Shown here in pieces: positions 7,316 to 55,328 of a DNA stretch of 64,000 bases. The notes under the pieces are model-generated. The model ran no database searches. It saw nothing but the letters and a program-made list of their open reading frames with translations, and had not been told where the DNA came from. The DNA lies in NCBI GenBank assembly GCA_964624065.1, contig CAZUWF010000009.1:6742-70741 (forward strand). The letters are read 5' to 3'. The stretch comes from an uncultured Bacteroidales bacterium (lineage in GTDB: Bacteria; Bacteroidota; Bacteroidia; Bacteroidales; UBA7960). The stretch's first letter is position 1. Each line of letters opens with the position of its first letter. The position numbers and the translations under genes were made by a program.

Positions 7316-8386
7316 TCCACTAAGGAATTTTCGAGCCTTATTTCCTCTCGCATCATTTCCCACATAGTTACCAAAGTTTATCGAAGACCTAAGCAGAAAA
7401 CCTGCCGTCAACGTTTTGGGAATTGCAGATGTTGATCACAATTTCCTTCAAGAAAATATCCAGAACTCCTTAACCAACTGTGACAAAAGGAATAACCTGG
7501 AGGATTACAACGAGATTTTAAGCGTGGTTGCGTGCTTTAAAGCACTAGCACGGAAAGATCGATCCCCCGGACCCTTCAAACAAGTTCTGGTTGATCAAAG
7601 CTGCAAGGCTTAGCAATGATTTCAACATTATTGGGCTCAAAACCGATGTTATAAAGGATATGCGGTCCAAACCATAATTGAATAAGAGGTTCGTGAACGC
7701 AGGGATTGAAGTTGTCCCCACCAAGGTTGTTGAAGATTTTTTAACCTCCACCGAATTCCTTATACTGGCTGGTTATCCGGGGGTAGCCTTGCCCGATATG
7801 GCAGTGGAGGCAATGTTTGTTTGCAAAATTTACAACCAAATCCAGCTAGGGTACTTCTTTGCCAACACGCCTGTCGTTGGTTTTTTCTCAGGCATCCCAA
7901 ATATTTTGATGGGTCTTAGGCCATAAGCTGCAGTTACTACCCCAAACACTTTATTGGCCAAAATCCTGACTCCAGCATTTCCACAAGTCGCCCTATTCTT
8001 TTATGCCAAATTTGAACAATTCGTGGTACCTGCAGTGGAATAAAAAATCAAAAATAATAATCTACCCGGGACAGGGTGCCCGGGAAGAAACTATTGTTCG
8101 CTATGCCACTCAACTGGAGGCCATTTTCAGGATCAAGAACATTCAGGCATTTATGACTACTGCGGGTACAATATAAACCACGATTGGCCCTGGAAGGAAA
8201 AGCAATTTTCCCACCCTGTGAGAATTTTTTTGTAATCATTTACAAAAACCAAGACCGGAAAACCTCCTCACGTTGCAACTTTAACATACAAGGAGTAAGT
8301 AGGCCTGTTTTTTTTTGTGAAACCATGAGCCTGCATTTTTTACATCCTTAATTGCGAAACCCGCCGGCCGTGCCCAGGGGACAATT

Positions 8387-27592: not shown

Positions 27593-27961
27593 TCCCGAAA
27601 CTTGTTGGACCAATGGCATTGAACGAGTAAACCAAAAACATTAAAACCTATGTTGTGCTGCTTAATGGTGTGAAGAAGGATTTAAAACCTGTGAAAATCA
27701 GCCTGATTTGCTACGCCAGTGTTCCAAAACCAATCACGAGCATTTTCAACCAATTCAGCAAATTTTGGATGGAGAAGGAAAAATCGTCCAATTTTTCATT
27801 TTCGGTTTTGATCTGAACCTTCTTTTAGCCATAAATGCTTTGATTTGGATAAACCCGGGGATTTATTTGCCTGCAAACCAATTATAAAAATGAGAAAAGC
27901 AGCCAAATTGCAAGCCATATAAAAAAACTCCTGCATAGGTTTTTTGAAAAAAAAATTTCAC

Positions 27962-33969: not shown

Positions 33970-36045
33970 CTAATCCACCTTGAAGTCGTTGGTGGTAAGG
34001 CCCGAATTTACTTTAACCTCCGAAACCTTCATGTTCAAAACTTGTGGCCCCACTGTTTGTTTTACAGAAAATGGGAACAAAATGCCATTTACCTCCTTGT
34101 AATCTTCATAATCTGTTGGAATTGTTAACTGACCCATAGGACTATCTTGGGTTGATAAACTGCGCAATTTTAACCCTGTCACCTTACAGTAGTAATCGGT
34201 AGAAATCTTACCGGAAGGACTAACGACCTTTACTCTGTATGCCTCCTTGCCGTTAATTTCTTCAATTCCTGTAAGATCCAACTGGAATCCCGCAGATTGG
34301 TATTCCAACTCTGGAAAGATCCAAGCCTGTTCCCTTAATTGTGCCAGGTCATCACCTTGGAGGGTTCTGGCGCCTCCCATTCCGGATTCTTTTCCCTTGG
34401 CCCCGTTCATAACCTGCTGAGAAATTACATTGCCCATCATTGAAACAGACATTGAAAACATATTCGGATTTTTTTTCTTCATTTCCATAGCAAGGGGCAT
34501 ACCTTGCATCTCCGTTTGCATTTTAATCCACAAATCCTCTACTTTCCCTAGTTTTTCCTTGCCCCCGATTGCCTGGATGTATGCATCCAACACTTGTTGG
34601 GCGGTTATTTCGCCTTTGAATTCTTGCGGAGGGGCAACAGGACGTCCAAAAGGATCGAAAAACTCAACCTTGCCAGTGGCACTGAACTTGCGTAGTGTTT
34701 CGGGAACCTCATCAATGTTTCCTGCCACAACTATAATTGCATTTTCAGGCTTTAGATACTTGCGTGCCATATCCTGAATGTCCTTAACAGTAATAGCGCT
34801 TAGCTTTTGAAGGTAGGTTGAATAGTAATCCTTTGGGAGTTTGAATCTTTTGGTGTTGTAAGCAAACTCGGCAATCGTTTGTGGCCTTTCGAGCGAACGG
34901 CCAAAATTTCCCGACATGAAGTTCTTGACCATTTGCAAGGTTGACTCATCAATTGGCTCGTTGACAAGCCTCCGCATTTCCCCCAAAATTTCAATAACCG
35001 TGCTGTCCGACACGCTGTTTCGCACTTCGGCTTGGGCCGAGAAGCTTCCAATAAATCGATCGGTGTTCAACCTTGAATAGGAACCGTAAGTCCAACCCTT
35101 ATCCTCGCGTATGTTTTGCATTAGCCGGCCGAAGAAGGCCCCACCACCCAATATGGTGTTCATGGCAGAGGCTTTTATCGCATCCGGGTTTCCAGGGGTA
35201 AACTCCACGGGGTAGGTAACCATTACAACCGATTGGGTTGCGCCCGAGCGAGCACCAAACGCTACCCTGTTGCCCTCTGGAGCCTTGGGGGTGGTATATT
35301 TGGCTGTAGGGACTTTACCCTTTTTCCACCCTCCGAAATACTTGTTGGCAACTACCTTTGCTTCCTTGGTATCAATGTCACCCACAATAATTAGGTATGC
35401 ATTGTTTGGTTTAAAGAAAGTGTTGTAAAATTGTCGAAGCAGGTTGGTGTTAATATTGTCGAGGTGTTCGGGAGTTTGAACCTGCCCGTAAGGGTGGTTG
35501 CCATGACGTGTTACGGTGCTAATATTGTTGGCAATAAAATTGGCATCGTTTCGGTTGGCTTCGAAACCCGAGCGTACCTGGGTAAGTCTTTTCTGCAGTT
35601 CTTCTTCTGGGAATGTAGGGTTTAGCAAAATGTCTTGCATTAGTTCGAGCAAGGTTTCTTGGTTTCGTTTTAGCGATGATCCAAACATCCCTGTGGCCGA
35701 TGAGCTAATGGTTGCACCTATGAAGTCAATTTCCTCGTCTATTTGTTGCTTGGTGCGGGTTTTTGTTCCCTCGCGCATTAGAGCCCCGGCAAGGCTGGCA
35801 TAGCCCACTGCTTTACCTTCGTCCAACGGGTCGCGGTTTAGCCTGATCGAAAACGATACCACAGGTACCTGGCGGTTCTCCACAACTATTACTTCTAACC
35901 CGTTTTTGAGTTTGAACGAATCGAATTTTCCAAGTTGAATTTCGCGGGCCGGAGCTGGTTCTGGTCTCTTACTTCTGTCTAATTGCGCCATCGAAGGCAA
36001 AACCAAGAAGAGGCATAGTGCTAATATTGAAAGTAATTTCTTCAT
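33970..36045 (-). CDS. M16 (pitrilysin) family protein lacking the HxxEH site, with a C-terminal extra domain of about 230 aa
   Basis: Signal peptide. M16 fold pattern (KLKNGLEVIVVENRQVPVVSF...), but it has GYASLAGALMREGT where HxxEH would be. The tail resembles a LolA-like lipoprotein-sorting fold (INGKEAYRVKVVSPSGKISTDYYCKVTGL). Confidence 0.8.
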   Translation of the reverse strand: MKKLLSILALCLFLVLPSMAQLDRSKRPEPAPAREIQLGKFDSFKLKNGLEVIVVENRQVPVVSFSIRLNRDPLDEGKAVGYASLAGALMREGTKTRTKQQIDEEIDFIGATISSSATGMFGSSLKRNQETLLELMQDILLNPTFPEEELQKRLTQVRSGFEANRNDANFIANNISTVTRHGNHPYGQVQTPEHLDNINTNLLRQFYNTFFKPNNAYLIIVGDIDTKEAKVVANKYFGGWKKGKVPTAKYTTPKAPEGNRVAFGARSGATQSVVMVTYPVEFTPGNPDAIKASAMNTILGGGAFFGRLMQNIREDKGWTYGSYSRLNTDRFIGSFSAQAEVRNSVSDSTVIEILGEMRRLVNEPIDESTLQMVKNFMSGNFGRSLERPQTIAEFAYNTKRFKLPKDYYSTYLQKLSAITVKDIQDMARKYLKPENAIIVVAGNIDEVPETLRKFSATGKVEFFDPFGRPVAPPQEFKGEITAQQVLDAYIQAIGGKEKLGKVEDLWIKMQTEMQGMPLAMEMKKKNPNMFSMSVSMMGNVISQQVMNGAKGKESGMGGARTLQGDDLAQLREQAWIFPELEYQSAGFQLDLTGIEEINGKEAYRVKVVSPSGKISTDYYCKVTGLKLRSLSTQDSPMGQLTIPTDYEDYKEVNGILFPFSVKQTVGPQVLNMKVSEVKVNSGLTTNDFKVD

Positions 36046-36072
36046 TTTCTCTAAAAATTATTGGTTGCTATA

Positions 36073-37410
36073 CTATTCTTTTGGTTTGGGCAAATAATTC
36101 AACACAACCCTGCGGTTTTGACTTAAATACTCGTTTGCCACCCGTTTAATGTCCTCGCGAGTAACCTTTAGGTAATTTTCCAACTCGGTGTTAATCCTGT
36201 TGGTGTCCTTGTAAAAAGTTTGGTACGTTGCCAACGAACTTGCCCTACTCGAAATGGTTGTATTGTTGTTTACGAATTGGCTCTCCATTTGGTTTTTCAA
36301 CTTTTGTAGTTCCCTTTCGGATATTAATTCATTTTTTACCCGTTCAAGTTCCACGTTCATTCCGGCCTCAAGTTCTTCGAGCCCTACTCCCATATTTGGA
36401 ATTCCGAACACTATGAACAAACCGGGATGTTCTAGACCAAGAGGAATAGCCATAACTTGCAAGGCTTTCTGGGTTTGATCAACCAGGGCCTTGTACATCC
36501 TGCTACTTTGCCCTTGCGATAAAAGGGTGCTTAGCATACTCATAGCATAGTAATCAACGGAACCTTGTGCAGGAATTGGGTAGCCTAAGACTAGTGCTGG
36601 CAGTTGAATGTTGTCATACTGAGTGGTTCTGACTTCCTGCGTTTTGATAGGCTCGTTTGGCGATGGGTGCTTGACTTCGAAGCGTCCCCTTGGAATATCG
36701 CCAAAATACTTGGCAACTAATTTCTTGGTTTCTTCAATAACTATGTCGCCTGCTACAACAAGCACGGCATTGTTTGGAACGTAATAGGTATCGTGAAAAA
36801 GATTGATCTCCTCGTGGGTGGCTGCTCTAATGTGATCGGCCATTCCAAGTACATCATTTTTATAAGGGTGAACCGTGTAGGATGCTTTTAGCAGCTCGGA
36901 GAGCAATCTTCCGTATGGCCTGTTATCGCGAGTCTGCTTCATTTCTTCGGTCACCACGTCCTTTTGGGTGGTTATGCCTACCGAGTCTATCACCGGGTGG
37001 AGCATCCTTTCGGACTCCAGCCACAGCCCAAGCTCGAGCTGGTTGGAAGGAAGTAGCTCAAAATAGGTTGTGTAGTCAAATGAGGTCCCTGCATTTAGCT
37101 GTCCTCCGGCTCTTTCTACAATTTCGGAGTACTCACCCCGGCCTATGTTGGCCGTGCCTTCAAACAGTAAGTGCTCGAAAAAGTGTGCAAAACCGGTTCG
37201 GTCGGGGTGATCGTTCTTTGCCCCTACATGGTACATTATTTCCACAACCACGTTAGGGGTTGTGTTGTCTTGGTGCAGTATTACATGCAACCCGTTGCCG
37301 AGCTTGTACTCGACGAAATCAATCCTTCTGGCCTGCCCGTTCAGGACTTGCCCAAGGGCAAGAATAAGAAGCAAGCTAGCCGATAGCTTCTTGGCGATTT
37401 TTTTAATCAT
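36073..37410 (-). CDS. M16 family zinc peptidase (catalytic subunit)
   Basis: GFAHFFEHLLFEGT (HxxEH...E). Signal peptide from MIKKIAKKLSASLLLILALG. The promoter box at 37449 argues for ATG 37410 rather than 37440. Confidence 0.85.
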   Translation of the reverse strand: MIKKIAKKLSASLLLILALGQVLNGQARRIDFVEYKLGNGLHVILHQDNTTPNVVVEIMYHVGAKNDHPDRTGFAHFFEHLLFEGTANIGRGEYSEIVERAGGQLNAGTSFDYTTYFELLPSNQLELGLWLESERMLHPVIDSVGITTQKDVVTEEMKQTRDNRPYGRLLSELLKASYTVHPYKNDVLGMADHIRAATHEEINLFHDTYYVPNNAVLVVAGDIVIEETKKLVAKYFGDIPRGRFEVKHPSPNEPIKTQEVRTTQYDNIQLPALVLGYPIPAQGSVDYYAMSMLSTLLSQGQSSRMYKALVDQTQKALQVMAIPLGLEHPGLFIVFGIPNMGVGLEELEAGMNVELERVKNELISERELQKLKNQMESQFVNNNTTISSRASSLATYQTFYKDTNRINTELENYLKVTREDIKRVANEYLSQNRRVVLNYLPKPKE

Positions 37411-37448
37411 AAAAAATTGGTTATTGGAAATGTTTAACAAAAGCTGTG

Positions 37449-37456
37449 CAAAGTTA
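37449..37456 (-). promoter_or_regulatory. candidate -7 promoter box for the M16 pair
   Basis: The minus strand reads TAACTTTG, 38 nt upstream of ATG 37410. Confidence 0.5.
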
Positions 37457-37520
37457 AAAAAGTTACAAAATAATGGTCAACGAATTTAGTTAAAAAAGGC
37501 TAACATAAAGGTTTGTCAGT

Positions 37521-39311
37521 TTAGAATAATGTATCAAGCCCCAGTTCGTTGTACAAGTTTTTTAATTGAGCATTTTTTTGTATTAACTTCTCGAGCTTTT
37601 CTTTGGGATCCAGGGGTTTTTTCTGGTTTTTTACCTCTACCAGTTCAGTGAACAATTGCACCTGGTAATTGCTGAGCCTGTTCCTGAGGAATTCCAGAAG
37701 TTCGGGCTTCTTTTCAAAAATTATTGTCTCCTGAATGGCATTGTCAACCTTAAGCCTTATATTGCAATTCTCGTCAATGGTTGGTTGATAGGTGGTTAAG
37801 GCTGCGAAAAGGCTTAGGCTTTGATCTTGATAAATCTTTCCCATTTCTGACCAAACCTCATTGAATTTTGACTCGTTGATGGACTCGTTGGGTAGGTTTT
37901 CGGAACTAACCTGGGTTTCTTCAATAAAATTTTCATCCTCATCCTCAGTACTATGTATCTTCAAGCTTATTGGCTTGAAAGGCTTTCTTGCCACAGATTT
38001 TTTTTCTTCGATTACAGGTTCCAATGCCTCGTTAGTGGAGACCTCTTCTTTTTTTGCAGGTTCGTGAAAATGAGGCAGGGGAGTAGTTACCTCTTTTTTA
38101 ACTTCAGGGGCTAGTTTTCGGGTGCTTGGCGTTTCTTCTACCGTGAAACCTCTGGCTCCAAATCCTTTGTCAGGGTTTACCAAGTTGGTTTTGGGCGGGA
38201 TTAGTTCAGGTTTTTTTTTTTTTACGAGGCCTGCCATCTGAAGCAAGGTCAACTCCATAGTCAGACGCTTGTTATTACTCTCCTTGTAGGTCAGTTCGGC
38301 TCTGGAGTTCAAATCAAGGGCTCCTAGCAAGAAATCGGCTTCGCAAGCCTTGGCCTGGATGAGGTATTTTTCCCTCACATCGTTGCTTACTTCAATTAGC
38401 CCAAGGGTTGCAGGAGTCTTGGCCAAGAGCAAGTTTCGAAGGTGCTCGCCAAATCCGGTAAGGAATTCTGAGCCCTCGAAACCTTTAAATATTATGTCAT
38501 TCAACAATAGCAATACCTCCGATGTTTTCTCCTCCAAAACGTAATCGGTAATTTTAAAATAATAATCGTAATCAAGCACGTTGAGGTTTTCGATCACGTG
38601 CTTGTAGGAGAGCTCGTTGCCCGAAAAGCTTACCATTTGGTCGAAGATAGAAAGGGAATCGCGCAAAGCTCCGTCAGCTTTTTGAGCAATAATCCTCAAT
38701 GCGTTTGGGTCGGCATTTACACCTTCCTTTTGGGCAACGTATTGAAGGTGCGTGGCAATATCGTCAACGGTAATTCGAGCGAAGTCAAAAATCTGGCATC
38801 TTGAGAGTATCGTGGGAATTATCTTGTGTTTCTCGGTGGTTGCCAATATGAACTTAGCATATGCCGGAGGCTCTTCTAGGGTCTTCAAAAAAGCGTTGAA
38901 TGCCTGAGAAGATAACATATGAACCTCATCGATGATGTAAACCTTGTACTTGCCAATTTGGGGAGGGATGCGCACGGCATCAACCAAATGTCGAATGTTA
39001 TCAACCGAATTGTTTGATGCGGCATCAATCTCGTGGACGTTGAAAGCACTGGATTCGTTGAACGCCTTGCAAGGTTCGCACTGGTTACAAGCCTCCACTT
39101 TCTCGGTAAGGTTTTGGCAATTGATGGTTTTGGCCATTATTCGTGCACAAGTGGTCTTACCAACACCCCTAGGGCCGGTAAAAATAAATGCCTGCGCAAT
39201 GTTATTGTGGCGAATGGCATTCTTGAGAGTGTTGGTAATAGATTTCTGACCAACTACTGTATCAAAGGTGGCAGGTCGGTATTTGCGGGCCGATACCAAA
39301 AATCCGTTCAT
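37521..39311 (-). CDS. dnaX: DNA polymerase III subunit tau (gamma/tau)
   Basis: MNGFLVSARKYRPATFDTVVGQ...FTGPRGVGKTTCARI...IIDEVHMLS. The track ORF begins 51 codons earlier (39464) with an implausible hydrophobic leader that contains the promoter box. Confidence 0.9.
   Translation of the reverse strand: MNGFLVSARKYRPATFDTVVGQKSITNTLKNAIRHNNIAQAFIFTGPRGVGKTTCARIMAKTINCQNLTEKVEACNQCEPCKAFNESSAFNVHEIDAASNNSVDNIRHLVDAVRIPPQIGKYKVYIIDEVHMLSSQAFNAFLKTLEEPPAYAKFILATTEKHKIIPTILSRCQIFDFARITVDDIATHLQYVAQKEGVNADPNALRIIAQKADGALRDSLSIFDQMVSFSGNELSYKHVIENLNVLDYDYYFKITDYVLEEKTSEVLLLLNDIIFKGFEGSEFLTGFGEHLRNLLLAKTPATLGLIEVSNDVREKYLIQAKACEADFLLGALDLNSRAELTYKESNNKRLTMELTLLQMAGLVKKKKPELIPPKTNLVNPDKGFGARGFTVEETPSTRKLAPEVKKEVTTPLPHFHEPAKKEEVSTNEALEPVIEEKKSVARKPFKPISLKIHSTEDEDENFIEETQVSSENLPNESINESKFNEVWSEMGKIYQDQSLSLFAALTTYQPTIDENCNIRLKVDNAIQETIIFEKKPELLEFLRNRLSNYQVQLFTELVEVKNQKKPLDPKEKLEKLIQKNAQLKNLYNELGLDTLF
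38211..38223 (-). other. A13 homopolymer (slippery tract) inside dnaX
   Basis: T13 on the + strand. The coding strand reads GTA AAA AAA AAA AAA CCT GAA CTA A. See the first finding. Confidence 0.9.
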
Positions 39312-39339
39312 AAAATTAGGCTTGTTAAGTCTCGTGGGG

Positions 39340-39347
39340 CAAAAGTA
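39340..39347 (-). promoter_or_regulatory. candidate -7 promoter box for dnaX
   Basis: The minus strand reads TACTTTTG, 28 nt upstream of ATG 39311. Confidence 0.55.
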
Positions 39348-39642
39348 TAGAAAAAAGTCAAAAGACAAAAGCCTAACCGCAAAAGAAAAGCAGCGAAGTG
39401 TGAACAGCTTATAGTTAAAGATTAAGAACCAAGAAAAAAATTTGTACCAAAGCTCAAGGTTCATTGTTTCCCCCGGGCGAAAATAAAAAGGCCGGCAAAG
39501 GTATGAAAACGATTTATATCATCAAATGGTGGCCAAGCCTAACAATTATTAGTGCATTTCCAAGCAATTACCACTGCATATCCAAATGCCTAATTCTGAC
39601 GGCAACTCAACAAATCACCTTCTTAACATCCCAAACTTCAAT

Positions 39643-39650
39643 TATCTTTG
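39643..39650 (+). promoter_or_regulatory. candidate -7 promoter box for the EamA gene (would give a near-leaderless mRNA)
   Basis: TATCTTTG lies only 10 nt before ATG 39661. The next ATG is 39670. Confidence 0.35.
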
Positions 39651-39660
39651 CACCCATTTT

Positions 39661-40611
39661 ATGAAACGAATGGTTAAAGAAGGAAAACCCGCGCTTGTTG
39701 ATTGGCTTGTATTATTTGCCCTTATGGTAGTTTGGGGTAGCAGTTTCATTTTAATAAAGAAGGGTTTGGTCTCCTTCGACCCAATGCAGTTGGGCGCGTT
39801 GCGAATCTCCATTTCATTCGGGTTCCTCTTGCCGTTGGCAATAAGCAAGATAAGGCGAGTTCCATTGAACCAGCTGAAGTATTTTGCGATTTCTGCAATA
39901 ATCGGTAGTGGGCTGCCTCCGTTTTTGTTTGCCATAGCGCAATCAAACATAGACAGCTACTTAGCCGGGGTTTTGAACTCCCCAACGCCACTATTCACTT
40001 TGATAATTGGGGCGTTGTTTTTTTCGGTAAGGGCTAGGTTGATAAATGTCATTGGTGTAATTGTAGGGTTGATCGGTGCCATTGGCCTTCTCACGGCTGT
40101 AAATTATGCCAATGGCGGTGGCAATGCCATATTTGGGCTTTTGGTAGTGCTGGCCACAATTTTCTACGCCACCAACATCAATTTCATAAAGAAATTCTTG
40201 GCTAAGTTCGATTCGGTAACCATCACCTCCGTTTCTTTCACAATAATTGGTGTGCCCGCTACCATTTACCTTTTTTGTGGAACGGGATTTCTCTCCACGC
40301 TGCAGTCGCATCCCGAAAGCTACAGGAGTCTTTTTTACGTTGCCCTTTTGTCAATCTTCGGAACGGCTATTAGCATGATTGCATTCAATTGGCTCATAAA
40401 AAGGGTTTCGGCCCTTTTTGCTTCCACGGTTACTTACATGATGCCGATAGTAAGCATTGCCTGGGGATTTGTTGATGGGGAAAGTTTCTTTTTGGTTTAT
40501 GTTTTGTGGATACTACTTATTTTGTTTGGGGTCTTTATGTCTAACGCACCGGCGTCTTTATGGACCAAGATTTGGGAAAAAGGCTCAGGTTGGCTGTTGC
40601 GGGTGAAATAG
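39661..40611 (+). CDS. DMT superfamily (EamA-like) transporter
   Basis: Ten hydrophobic helices with two EamA-like halves (WGSSFILIKKGL...). Confidence 0.75.
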   Translation: MKRMVKEGKPALVDWLVLFALMVVWGSSFILIKKGLVSFDPMQLGALRISISFGFLLPLAISKIRRVPLNQLKYFAISAIIGSGLPPFLFAIAQSNIDSYLAGVLNSPTPLFTLIIGALFFSVRARLINVIGVIVGLIGAIGLLTAVNYANGGGNAIFGLLVVLATIFYATNINFIKKFLAKFDSVTITSVSFTIIGVPATIYLFCGTGFLSTLQSHPESYRSLFYVALLSIFGTAISMIAFNWLIKRVSALFASTVTYMMPIVSIAWGFVDGESFFLVYVLWILLILFGVFMSNAPASLWTKIWEKGSGWLLRVK

Positions 40612-55300: not shown

Positions 55301-55328
55301 AAGGAGCCTCCAGGCTCCTTTTTTTTTG
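55301..55328. terminator. bidirectional rho-independent terminator between rplT (+) and the Nudix gene (-)
   Basis: AAGGAGCC TCCA GGCTCCTT hairpin, flanked by A8 on the left and T9 on the right. Confidence 0.85.

Follow-up and report, generated by a model that had tools for sequence, protein, structure and literature searches.

A conserved poly(A) run in Bacteroidota dnaX as a probable tau/gamma recoding site of the Thermus type

Introduction

Can a single dnaX gene of a Bacteroidales bacterium yield both the long tau and the short gamma protein, and by what means? The question is raised by a run of 13 consecutive A residues (A13) on the coding strand of dnaX in a 64,000-nucleotide stretch of DNA from an uncultured Bacteroidales bacterium (contig CAZUWF010000009.1, positions 6,742 to 70,741), the whole of which is called the window below. 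Three routes by which tau and gamma arise from one gene have been reported: ribosomal frameshifting, transcriptional slippage and proteolysis. Expression of Escherichia coli dnaX involves -1 programmed ribosomal frameshifting at A_AAA_AAG, with an upstream Shine-Dalgarno (SD)-like element and a downstream stem-loop. Transcriptional slippage in Thermus thermophilus dnaX was reportedly described by Larsen et al. in 2000 (PNAS 97:1683). The mechanism is established for T. thermophilus, where slippage on A9 leads to tau and gamma in a ratio of about 1:1 (PMC1088944; PMC5009743). A preliminary description of the window had put forward its A13 run as a candidate tau/gamma recoding site. Comparison with other Bacteroidota dnaX loci indicates that the run is probably a programmed recoding site of the T. 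thermophilus type.

Results

The dnaX gene and its A13 run

The dnaX coding sequence occupies positions 37521..39311 on the minus strand. The open reading frame (ORF) and its translation comprise 596 amino acids (aa) plus a stop, and standard decoding gives a full-length tau-like protein. Pfam analysis detected DNA_pol3_delta2, DNAX_ATPase_lid and DNA_pol3_gamma3 (residues 245-369), and residues 4-359 matched residues 3-356 of E. coli gamma/tau in PDB 1JR3/1XXI (E=1.6e-68). The crystallised E. coli gamma 1-373 is the aligned reference for the N-terminal part of the protein. Full-length homologues are 61-65% identical to the window DnaX and all are consistent with ATG 39311 as the start; the mechanical ORF list carries the gene upstream to 39464 (647 aa), and every homologue begins at ATG 39311.

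The run lies at 38211..38223 (minus strand) and supplies the third base of the Val363 codon GTA and all of Lys364-367. On the minus strand the site reads ...GGC CTC GTA AAA AAA AAA AAA CCT GAA CTA ATC.... As residues 4-359 align to E. coli gamma/tau, the run is placed at the end of clamp-loader domain III. Codons 1-363 (38224..39311, minus strand) encode the AAA+ clamp-loader domains I-III, the gamma-like core that all products would share. Codons 368-596 (37521..38210, minus strand) form the tau-specific part, a Lys/Glu/Pro-rich linker followed by a conserved C-terminal domain (DUF8439 in relatives), which would be missing from slipped products. A PDB sequence search with the C-terminal 229 aa gave zero matches.

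Immediately after A13, a TGA is found one codon on in one alternative frame and a TAA two codons on in the other. With one extra A in the mRNA, equivalent to a -1 shift, the message would read ACC TGA and translation would end at the TGA at 38206..38208 (minus strand), giving a 368-aa protein terminating in ...GLVKKKKT. A message that had lost one A or gained two, which amounts to a +1 shift, would read AAC CTG AAC TAA and end at the TAA at 38201..38203 (minus strand); this product would terminate in ...KKKNLN and consist of 369 aa (one A fewer) or 370 aa (two A extra). The preliminary description had given these coordinates, frames and 368- and 369-aa products ending in KKKKT and KKKNLN, and the sequence confirms them. 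Its assignment of the gene as a 596-aa dnaX starting at ATG 39311 agrees with the Pfam result, the PDB match to gamma/tau and the starts of homologues, and its placement of the run directly past the clamp-loader core agrees with the alignment of residues 4-359.

Long A/T runs are uncommon in the window. Only four of at least 9 nucleotides (nt) were found, the three others being no longer than 9, and A9 words are rarer than expected (8 versus 18 in dinucleotide shuffles). The dnaX A13 is the sole run of this kind within a long ORF of the window, and genes in the window seem to exclude long A/T runs, dnaX excepted. Two of the other runs, at 8308-8316 and 27947-27955, are outside all stop-to-stop frames of at least 80 codons; that at 55319-55327 is only within a 135-codon frame of doubtful coding status. 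The T13 on the plus strand was considered as a terminator tail and rejected, as there is no terminator-like site at the run. An Rfam scan of the window returned 0 matches.

Conservation of the run in Bacteroidota

Two samples of dnaX loci were compared. The species-level sample contained 80 Bacteroidota loci, one genome per species, and the window as the 81st. The second was an independent metagenome set of 75 loci, seeded with a run-less Bacteroidales gene and thus biased against the feature. A run of A9-A13 was present at the boundary of domain III and the linker in 68 of 81 loci of the species-level sample (A10 in 58, A9 in 6, A11 in 2 and A13 in 2), and a run of A9-A12 at the same boundary in 49 of 75 metagenome loci. 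The preliminary description had suggested looking in relatives for a run of at least A9 with out-of-frame stops at the domain III boundary; the arrangement is retained in these 68 and 49 loci. Pooling gave 123 distinct run-bearing loci, 96 with A10, 12 with A9, 12 with A11, one with A12 and two with A13.

In the species-level sample the run starts in codon phase 0 in 8 loci, phase 1 in 40 and phase 2 in 20. Because it begins in all three codon phases, the conserved feature is the nucleotides and not the encoded peptide. In nearly all loci the run falls within aligned residues 351-390, and elsewhere in the same 563 kb of loci A/T runs of at least 9 number only 17. In the window's own clade both the run and its geometry are kept in 14 of 14 loci. 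The single-ORF architecture of the window is that of the majority (94 of 123 distinct run-bearing loci), and at 77% of single-ORF run sites both alternative frames are shut within 5 codons, compared with 9.8% of other positions in the same genes. This comparative conservation argues decisively that the run exceeds chance.

Split dnaX genes and the closest relatives of the window

In the remaining 29 of 123 loci the dnaX gene is split: the first ORF (ORF1) ends a few codons past the run, and the tau C-terminus is encoded in another frame (ORF2) which is open from the run onward. ORF1 and ORF2 overlap by a median of 31 nt (minimum 16 nt) with the run always inside the overlap, and in several split loci the first A of the run also belongs to the stop codon that bounds the second frame on its upstream side. 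One extra nucleotide is needed to join the two frames in 25 of these genes and one fewer in 4. Tau is essential in E. coli, and genomes with a split gene therefore need an efficient frame change at the run. The split dnaX genes are not pseudogenes. The recoding reading of the preliminary description thus gains support from 29 loci that can make tau only through a frame change in the run.

The closest relatives of the window belong to this group. The best protein matches to the window DnaX are 369-aa proteins with 93% (P0015), 89% (P0020) and 79% (P0084) identity, all three from split genes. The corresponding sites read GTT-A11-CCTGAACTAATC in L081 (93% identity), GTT-A10-G-CCTGAACTAATC in L085 (89%) and GT-A10-GCCCTGACCTGA in L087 (79%), compared with GT-A13-CCTGAACTAATC in the single ORF of the window; the more distant L089-L094 (61-65%) have A10 in a single ORF. 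P0015, with the site GTT-A11-CCTGAACTAA, is represented by at least 11 contigs. The CCTGAACTAA after the run is common to the window and L081-L086, and the annotated 369-aa product of L081-L086 ends at this TAA. On this evidence, tau synthesis in the closest relatives requires a frame change within the run. In the genomic neighbourhood, the order EamA transporter (plus strand), dnaX (minus), M16 peptidase (minus), M16 peptidase (minus), at 33970-40611 of the window, is kept in the nearest relatives L081-L088.

A downstream ORF matching PF28557 (DUF8439) was found in the three closest relatives, with 219-220 aa in two and called as 107 aa in the third. DUF8439 is annotated on stand-alone ORFs of 107-220 aa past a short dnaX (L081:3715-4377, L087:5128-5787 and similar loci). 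Rather than independent genes, these stand-alone ORFs represent the C-terminal tau region of Bacteroidota DnaX, encoded out of frame; tblastn matches to the C-terminal part fall in frame 0, +1 or +2 in relatives. The shared N-terminal part of the window DnaX is 93% identical to the 369-aa ORF1 of P0015, and the tau-specific part shares 68% identity with the ORF that L081 carries separately downstream. Insertion of one A into the L081 run yields a 596-aa protein, 83% identical to the full-length window protein and with an identical junction, GLVKKKKPELIPP. Therefore, the standard product of the window corresponds to the slippage product of its relatives, and a single base appears to swap the roles of tau and gamma between them. 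Such a flip of tau and gamma roles for dnaX, at ~50% efficiency, was foreseen in the review by Atkins et al. (PMC5009743).

A pair of loci with different run lengths was observed in Flavobacterium. L074 and L076 have the same flanks with A9 in one and A10 in the other, so that one has its tau frame at +1 and the other at +2; tau from either requires an mRNA run of 3n+2 A's (8 or 11). Either the run has changed in length at the DNA level between the two species, or one of the assemblies contains an error.

Run length and flanking RNA structure

The preliminary description had allowed for a slip of either the ribosome or RNA polymerase, and which machine would slip was considered from the length of the run and its surroundings. 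Among run-bearing loci the run is never shorter than 9 and its length peaks at 10. The RNA-DNA hybrid of the elongation complex measures 9-10 bp (PMC5009743), and it is at about this length that bacteria begin to show slippage as well as selection against it (PMC1088944). The match between run and hybrid length therefore points to transcription, as a ribosomal -1 shift would need no more than a heptamer. In the window run the A_AAA_AAA heptamer is found in every phase and the efficient AAG form is missing. Shifts in both directions are the criterion for transcriptional realignment used by Antonov et al. 2013 (PMC3711429), and their occurrence among the split genes favours realignment of this type.

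Folding analysis of 74 loci, including the window, revealed no excess of structure in the 45 nt downstream of the run (mean z -0.02, the same as in a control region). Upstream, in the 36 nt before the run, a hairpin ending 0-3 nt from the run placed 38% of the 74 loci in the best decile of their own-gene background (p = 2e-10), and the same was seen for 52% of 48 loci in an independent set (p = 3e-13), the p-values ignoring kinship among sequences. The enrichment of the abutting hairpin is about 4-5 fold over the background of the same genes in two independent samples. Hairpins of this kind were present in L002, L014, L020, L029, L033, L034, L041, L042, L048, L053, L056, L059, L070, L074, L076 and L079, and further in L108, L137, L140, L144, L146, L150, L153, L156-L162, L166 and L171. 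Examples are CTCTATCA-CTTT-TGATGGAG-A10 in Flavobacteriaceae, GCTTGTG-TCAACT-CACAAGC in L029 and GTCCGAC...GTCGGAC in L041. The stems vary by lineage in sequence and in position on the protein. The Flavobacteriaceae stem-loop, CTCTATCACTTTTGATGGAG-A10, has stems in at least two registers that no single consensus structure fits, and the GGAG that abuts the run in this family is the 3' arm of the hairpin.

A nascent-RNA hairpin adjoining the 5' side is a known stimulator of RNA polymerase slippage (Penno 2015, reviewed in PMC5009743). The abutting 5' hairpin thus has a geometry able to act on RNA polymerase, unlike a classical 3' frameshift stimulator. Hairpin strength did not differ between split and single-ORF genes (Mann-Whitney p = 0.61). 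In the window itself an imperfect upstream hairpin at 38229..38266 (minus strand) ends 5 nt before the run; its minimum free energy of -12.6 kcal/mol corresponds to z = -0.51 versus shuffles, leaving it unsupported there. Inspection by eye of the window sequence upstream of the run, GATGGCAGGCCTCGT, revealed no AGGAGG-like motif that could serve as an SD-like element. Overall, the sequence evidence leans towards RNA polymerase rather than the ribosome, without settling the matter.

dnaX loci lacking an intact run

Several loci outside the window have other arrangements at the same boundary. A gut and rumen Bacteroidales clade, comprising at least 120 protein clusters (76-99% identity), has no A run in dnaX and carries an in-frame TAG at the gamma/tau boundary (L039:2779-2839, L057:4090-4150, L062:4093-4153, L175:4090-4150, L177:4099-4159, L179:4084-4144 and L181:4102-4162). 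DnaX of this clade is called as 348-426 aa, most being exactly 366 and most ending in ...NP or ...YP. The TAG is followed by a conserved ATT GCA AGR KCG CCN CAG GCG GAG CAC (IAR[SA]PQAEH), and past it the frame is open for 189-254 codons, in several loci through the C-terminal ORF matching DUF8439. Since neighbouring Pfam-supported genes on the same contigs end in TAG, this codon is an ordinary stop in the clade. A further route to tau and gamma here may be programmed readthrough of the UAG, or else termination with reinitiation at the neighbouring ATT. A CGCC-NNN-GGCG hairpin past the TAG has four invariant pairs and showed no covariation, and Pfam analysis of the ORFs flanking the TAG in L057, L039 and L062 was uninformative.

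Two loci have short runs in the classical phase. L026 reads GGA AAA AAG CCT GAG near aligned residue 376; it contains A_AAA_AAG with AAA AAA GCC TGA in the -1 frame and resembles E. coli dnaX. L019 (Pontibacter rugosus) reads TCA AAA AAA GCT AAG near aligned residue 375, with a TAA one codon further in the -1 frame. Both are possible ribosomal-frameshift variants within the phylum. The run-less single-ORF loci L017, L023 and L037, of Bacteroides/Bacteroidaceae type, share GGGGCGTAGCYC (peptide GRS) at aligned residues of about 370-375, where L023 has G7 and the -1 frame reads GGG GCG TAG. The GGGGCGTAGCYC sequence may be merely a conserved peptide (compare ARSPQ past the TAG) or another slip site. 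Three more loci have no intact A run, and their frame-0 ORF stops at the boundary: L036 (TAA, codon about 383), L104 (TGA, codon 370) and L164 (TAA, codon 354, GAGGGAAAATAAATC), the last of which looks like a decayed Flavobacteriaceae run.

Discussion

The data presented argue that the A13 run of the window is a real, functional and conserved tau/gamma recoding site, most probably operating by transcriptional slippage. Transcription of the T13 template would produce a 9-10 bp hybrid consisting entirely of rA:dT, in which the nascent RNA could realign, and the resulting mRNA pool would range over A12, A13, A14, A15 and further lengths. Full-length tau, 596 aa +/- one Lys, would be made from messages with 13 or 13 +/- 3 A's. 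All the remaining messages would reach a TGA or TAA 1-3 codons past the run and give a gamma-like protein of 368-370 aa that consists of clamp-loader domains I-III only, without the linker and the conserved C-terminal domain. We infer that transcription is the main level of the frame change, and likewise infer the product ratio and the role of the short form.

Among the known systems the T. thermophilus dnaX is the closest in design. As in Thermus, a single tau ORF contains a sense-strand A run of at least 9 past the clamp-loader core, and stops lie nearby in both alternative frames, so that any slip by a non-multiple of three would lead to a short gamma. The differences are that the run is A13 here and A10 in most Bacteroidota compared with A9, that the phylum is another one, that the C-terminal DUF8439 has no detectable PDB sequence match, and that many Bacteroidota relatives have the abutting upstream hairpin, which is unmentioned for Thermus in PMC1088944 and PMC5009743.

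E. coli dnaX shares the gene and the outcome, gamma ending at a UGA one codon past an A-rich slip site with tau in the zero frame. The signals differ, however: a long homopolymer in the window takes the place of the phased heptamer, and neither a stem-loop downstream nor an evident SD-like element accompanies it. The window site is at residue about 364, the end of domain III, rather than about 430, and it closes both alternative frames where E. coli closes only -1. In Roseiflexus IS630 (Penno et al. 2015, PMC5009743), as in about 40-50% of Bacteroidota dnaX, a stem-loop stands 0-3 nt before the run, which is also the geometry of an intrinsic terminator. However, the IS630 motif is T5C5 and yields a specific one-base deletion, while Bacteroidota dnaX has a pure A run and the window has no significant hairpin. 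Caulobacter crescentus DnaX likewise provides a short gamma and a long tau from one gene, but does so by post-translational ClpXP proteolysis with no slippery sequence, and nothing in the window suggests this route.

Whether such a site had been documented for Bacteroidota was a question left by the preliminary description. In part it had: Antonov et al. 2013 (PMC3711429) listed 17 split dnaX genes, nine with A10, and predicted transcriptional realignment for them. Flavobacterium johnsoniae, F. psychrophilum, Cytophaga hutchinsonii, Capnocytophaga ochracea, Chlorobium and Coraliomargarita appear in their Fig. S3, so that A10 split genes of Flavobacterium, Cytophaga and Capnocytophaga were already on record. 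The phylum, run and position are those described here, and the nearest relatives L081-L088 share the two-ORF architecture. In contrast, the window gene is a single 596-aa ORF and represents the mirror image, with tau as the standard product and gamma predicted to arise by slippage. The frameshift-detection method of Antonov et al. sees the split form only, and the single-ORF form is uncatalogued there (PMC3711429). The literature searched, which left subscription journals mostly outside and so gives a weak negative, contained no account of the single-ORF form, of the phylum-wide extent, of the hairpin or of an experiment in Bacteroidota.

Several points weigh against the slippage reading. No experimental work on dnaX slippage in Bacteroidota was met in the same literature, a weak negative for the same reason. 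The run is missing in about 16-35% of the sampled Bacteroidota dnaX, mostly Bacteroidaceae-like, and therefore gamma made by way of poly(A) is not universal in the phylum; the enrichment statistics, moreover, count related sequences as independent. The window lacks a significant upstream hairpin, with no closed hairpin found up to 3 nt from the run and z = -0.51 for the fold of the 45 nt upstream. A13 is an outlier in length as well as a homopolymer, and the real length may be A12, which would make tau, and not gamma, the product of slippage. All the sequence arguments for the transcriptional level are indirect. Finally, ribosomes also slide on long poly(A) tracts, as found in E. coli (PMC4363877), and may contribute to the frame change.

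If the frame changed on the ribosome, by a -1 shift on A_AAA_AAA or by sliding on poly-lysine AAA codons, the same two products would arise from homogeneous mRNA. A_AAA_AAA is present in every phase of any run of at least A7, E. coli dnaX uses the related A_AAA_AAG (PMC5009743, PMC3711429), and sliding of E. coli ribosomes on iterated AAA codons could in principle proceed in both directions (PMC4363877). We nevertheless consider this unlikely, as A_AAA_AAA is far less shift-prone than A_AAA_AAG in E. coli (PMC5009743), a G directly follows the run in only 23 of 74 loci, and the same 74 loci show no downstream stem-loop signal. The run is also kept at 9 or more, mostly exactly 10, beyond what a ribosomal slip site needs, and the enriched structure abuts its 5' side, which is not the site of a classical 3' stimulator. 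It is similarly improbable that A13 is an assembly error for A12, the split form of the relatives, or for some other length; the site would still be one of recoding, with the 369-aa gamma coming from standard decoding and tau obtained via slippage. The caveat of a homopolymer sequencing error, raised in the preliminary description, stands, as A12 would give the window exactly the split architecture of its relatives. Homopolymers are classic error hotspots, A13 occurs in only 2 of 123 loci, and the three closest relatives, all split, have 12 nt (T+A11, or T+A10+G) where the window has 13. Nevertheless, no signs of indel errors were seen in the window: long ORFs fill it densely, and each of the two overlapping pairs that were checked (glgC/glgA; SDR/amine oxidase) consists of complete separate genes. 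The window differs from L081 also by a T-to-A substitution at the 5' edge of the run, which is no length error, and single-ORF and split forms alternate freely in relatives, so a genuine A13 single-ORF allele would be unremarkable.

Phase variation at the DNA level, in which slipped-strand mispairing would toggle between tau-encoding and gamma-only alleles, is very improbable. Long homopolymers are hypermutable (PMC1088944), and run length and frame do differ between species (A10, A11 and A13 in the window's clade; A9 versus A10 in Flavobacterium L074/L076). But gamma-only cells would not replicate, tau being essential, and the four nearest-relative contigs that were read carry an identical A11 run and flanks although they come from different samples. 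All 11 nearest-relative contigs found encode an identical 369-aa ORF1, and 96 of the 123 distinct loci are fixed at A10, which is the reverse of what a contingency locus would show. Least credible of all, and refuted by the comparative data, is that the run is a chance feature at the start of a Lys-rich linker with no role in recoding. The linker past the run is indeed rich in Lys, Glu and Pro, and outside the run the gene uses the two Lys codons almost equally with AAA slightly commoner (26 AAA versus 23 AAG). Against this, the run occurs in all three codon phases, so that the peptide varies by locus, AAG never interrupts it, both alternative frames are shut together, and 29 genomes split an essential gene exactly at this place.

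Joining these observations to the preferred explanation of transcriptional slippage, we tentatively suggest a broader picture, which is conceivable as a whole but on balance not the one to be expected. Bacteroidota dnaX would carry a phylum-wide slippage cassette indifferent to the frame of tau, with A10 at hybrid length and a terminator-like abutting hairpin in two in five to half of loci. Slippage would be efficient enough to let the tau frame drift (0, +1, +2) among close relatives. The A13 of the window would then be a recent expansion that converted slippage-dependent tau, the state of the 79-93% identical relatives, into slippage-dependent gamma, and the longer run may offset the missing hairpin.

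The mechanism is already known from other bacteria, and the window is a well-supported new example that introduces no new principle. Its practical consequence concerns annotation: gene callers are inconsistent, reporting one 596-aa gene in the window, but in its closest relatives a gene of 369 aa and, separately, an orphan DUF8439 gene, although DUF8439 is the tau C-terminal region of Bacteroidota. The extent of the feature, the flipping of frames and the hairpin would interest recoding specialists without surprising them. What gamma does in the cell is a matter of continuing debate (bioRxiv 10.1101/2022.11.10.516041). If the reading is true, a cassette present in most species with frame flipping would be a natural experiment on the amounts of tau and gamma that a cell needs, and also an in vivo read-out of slippage by Bacteroidota RNA polymerase.

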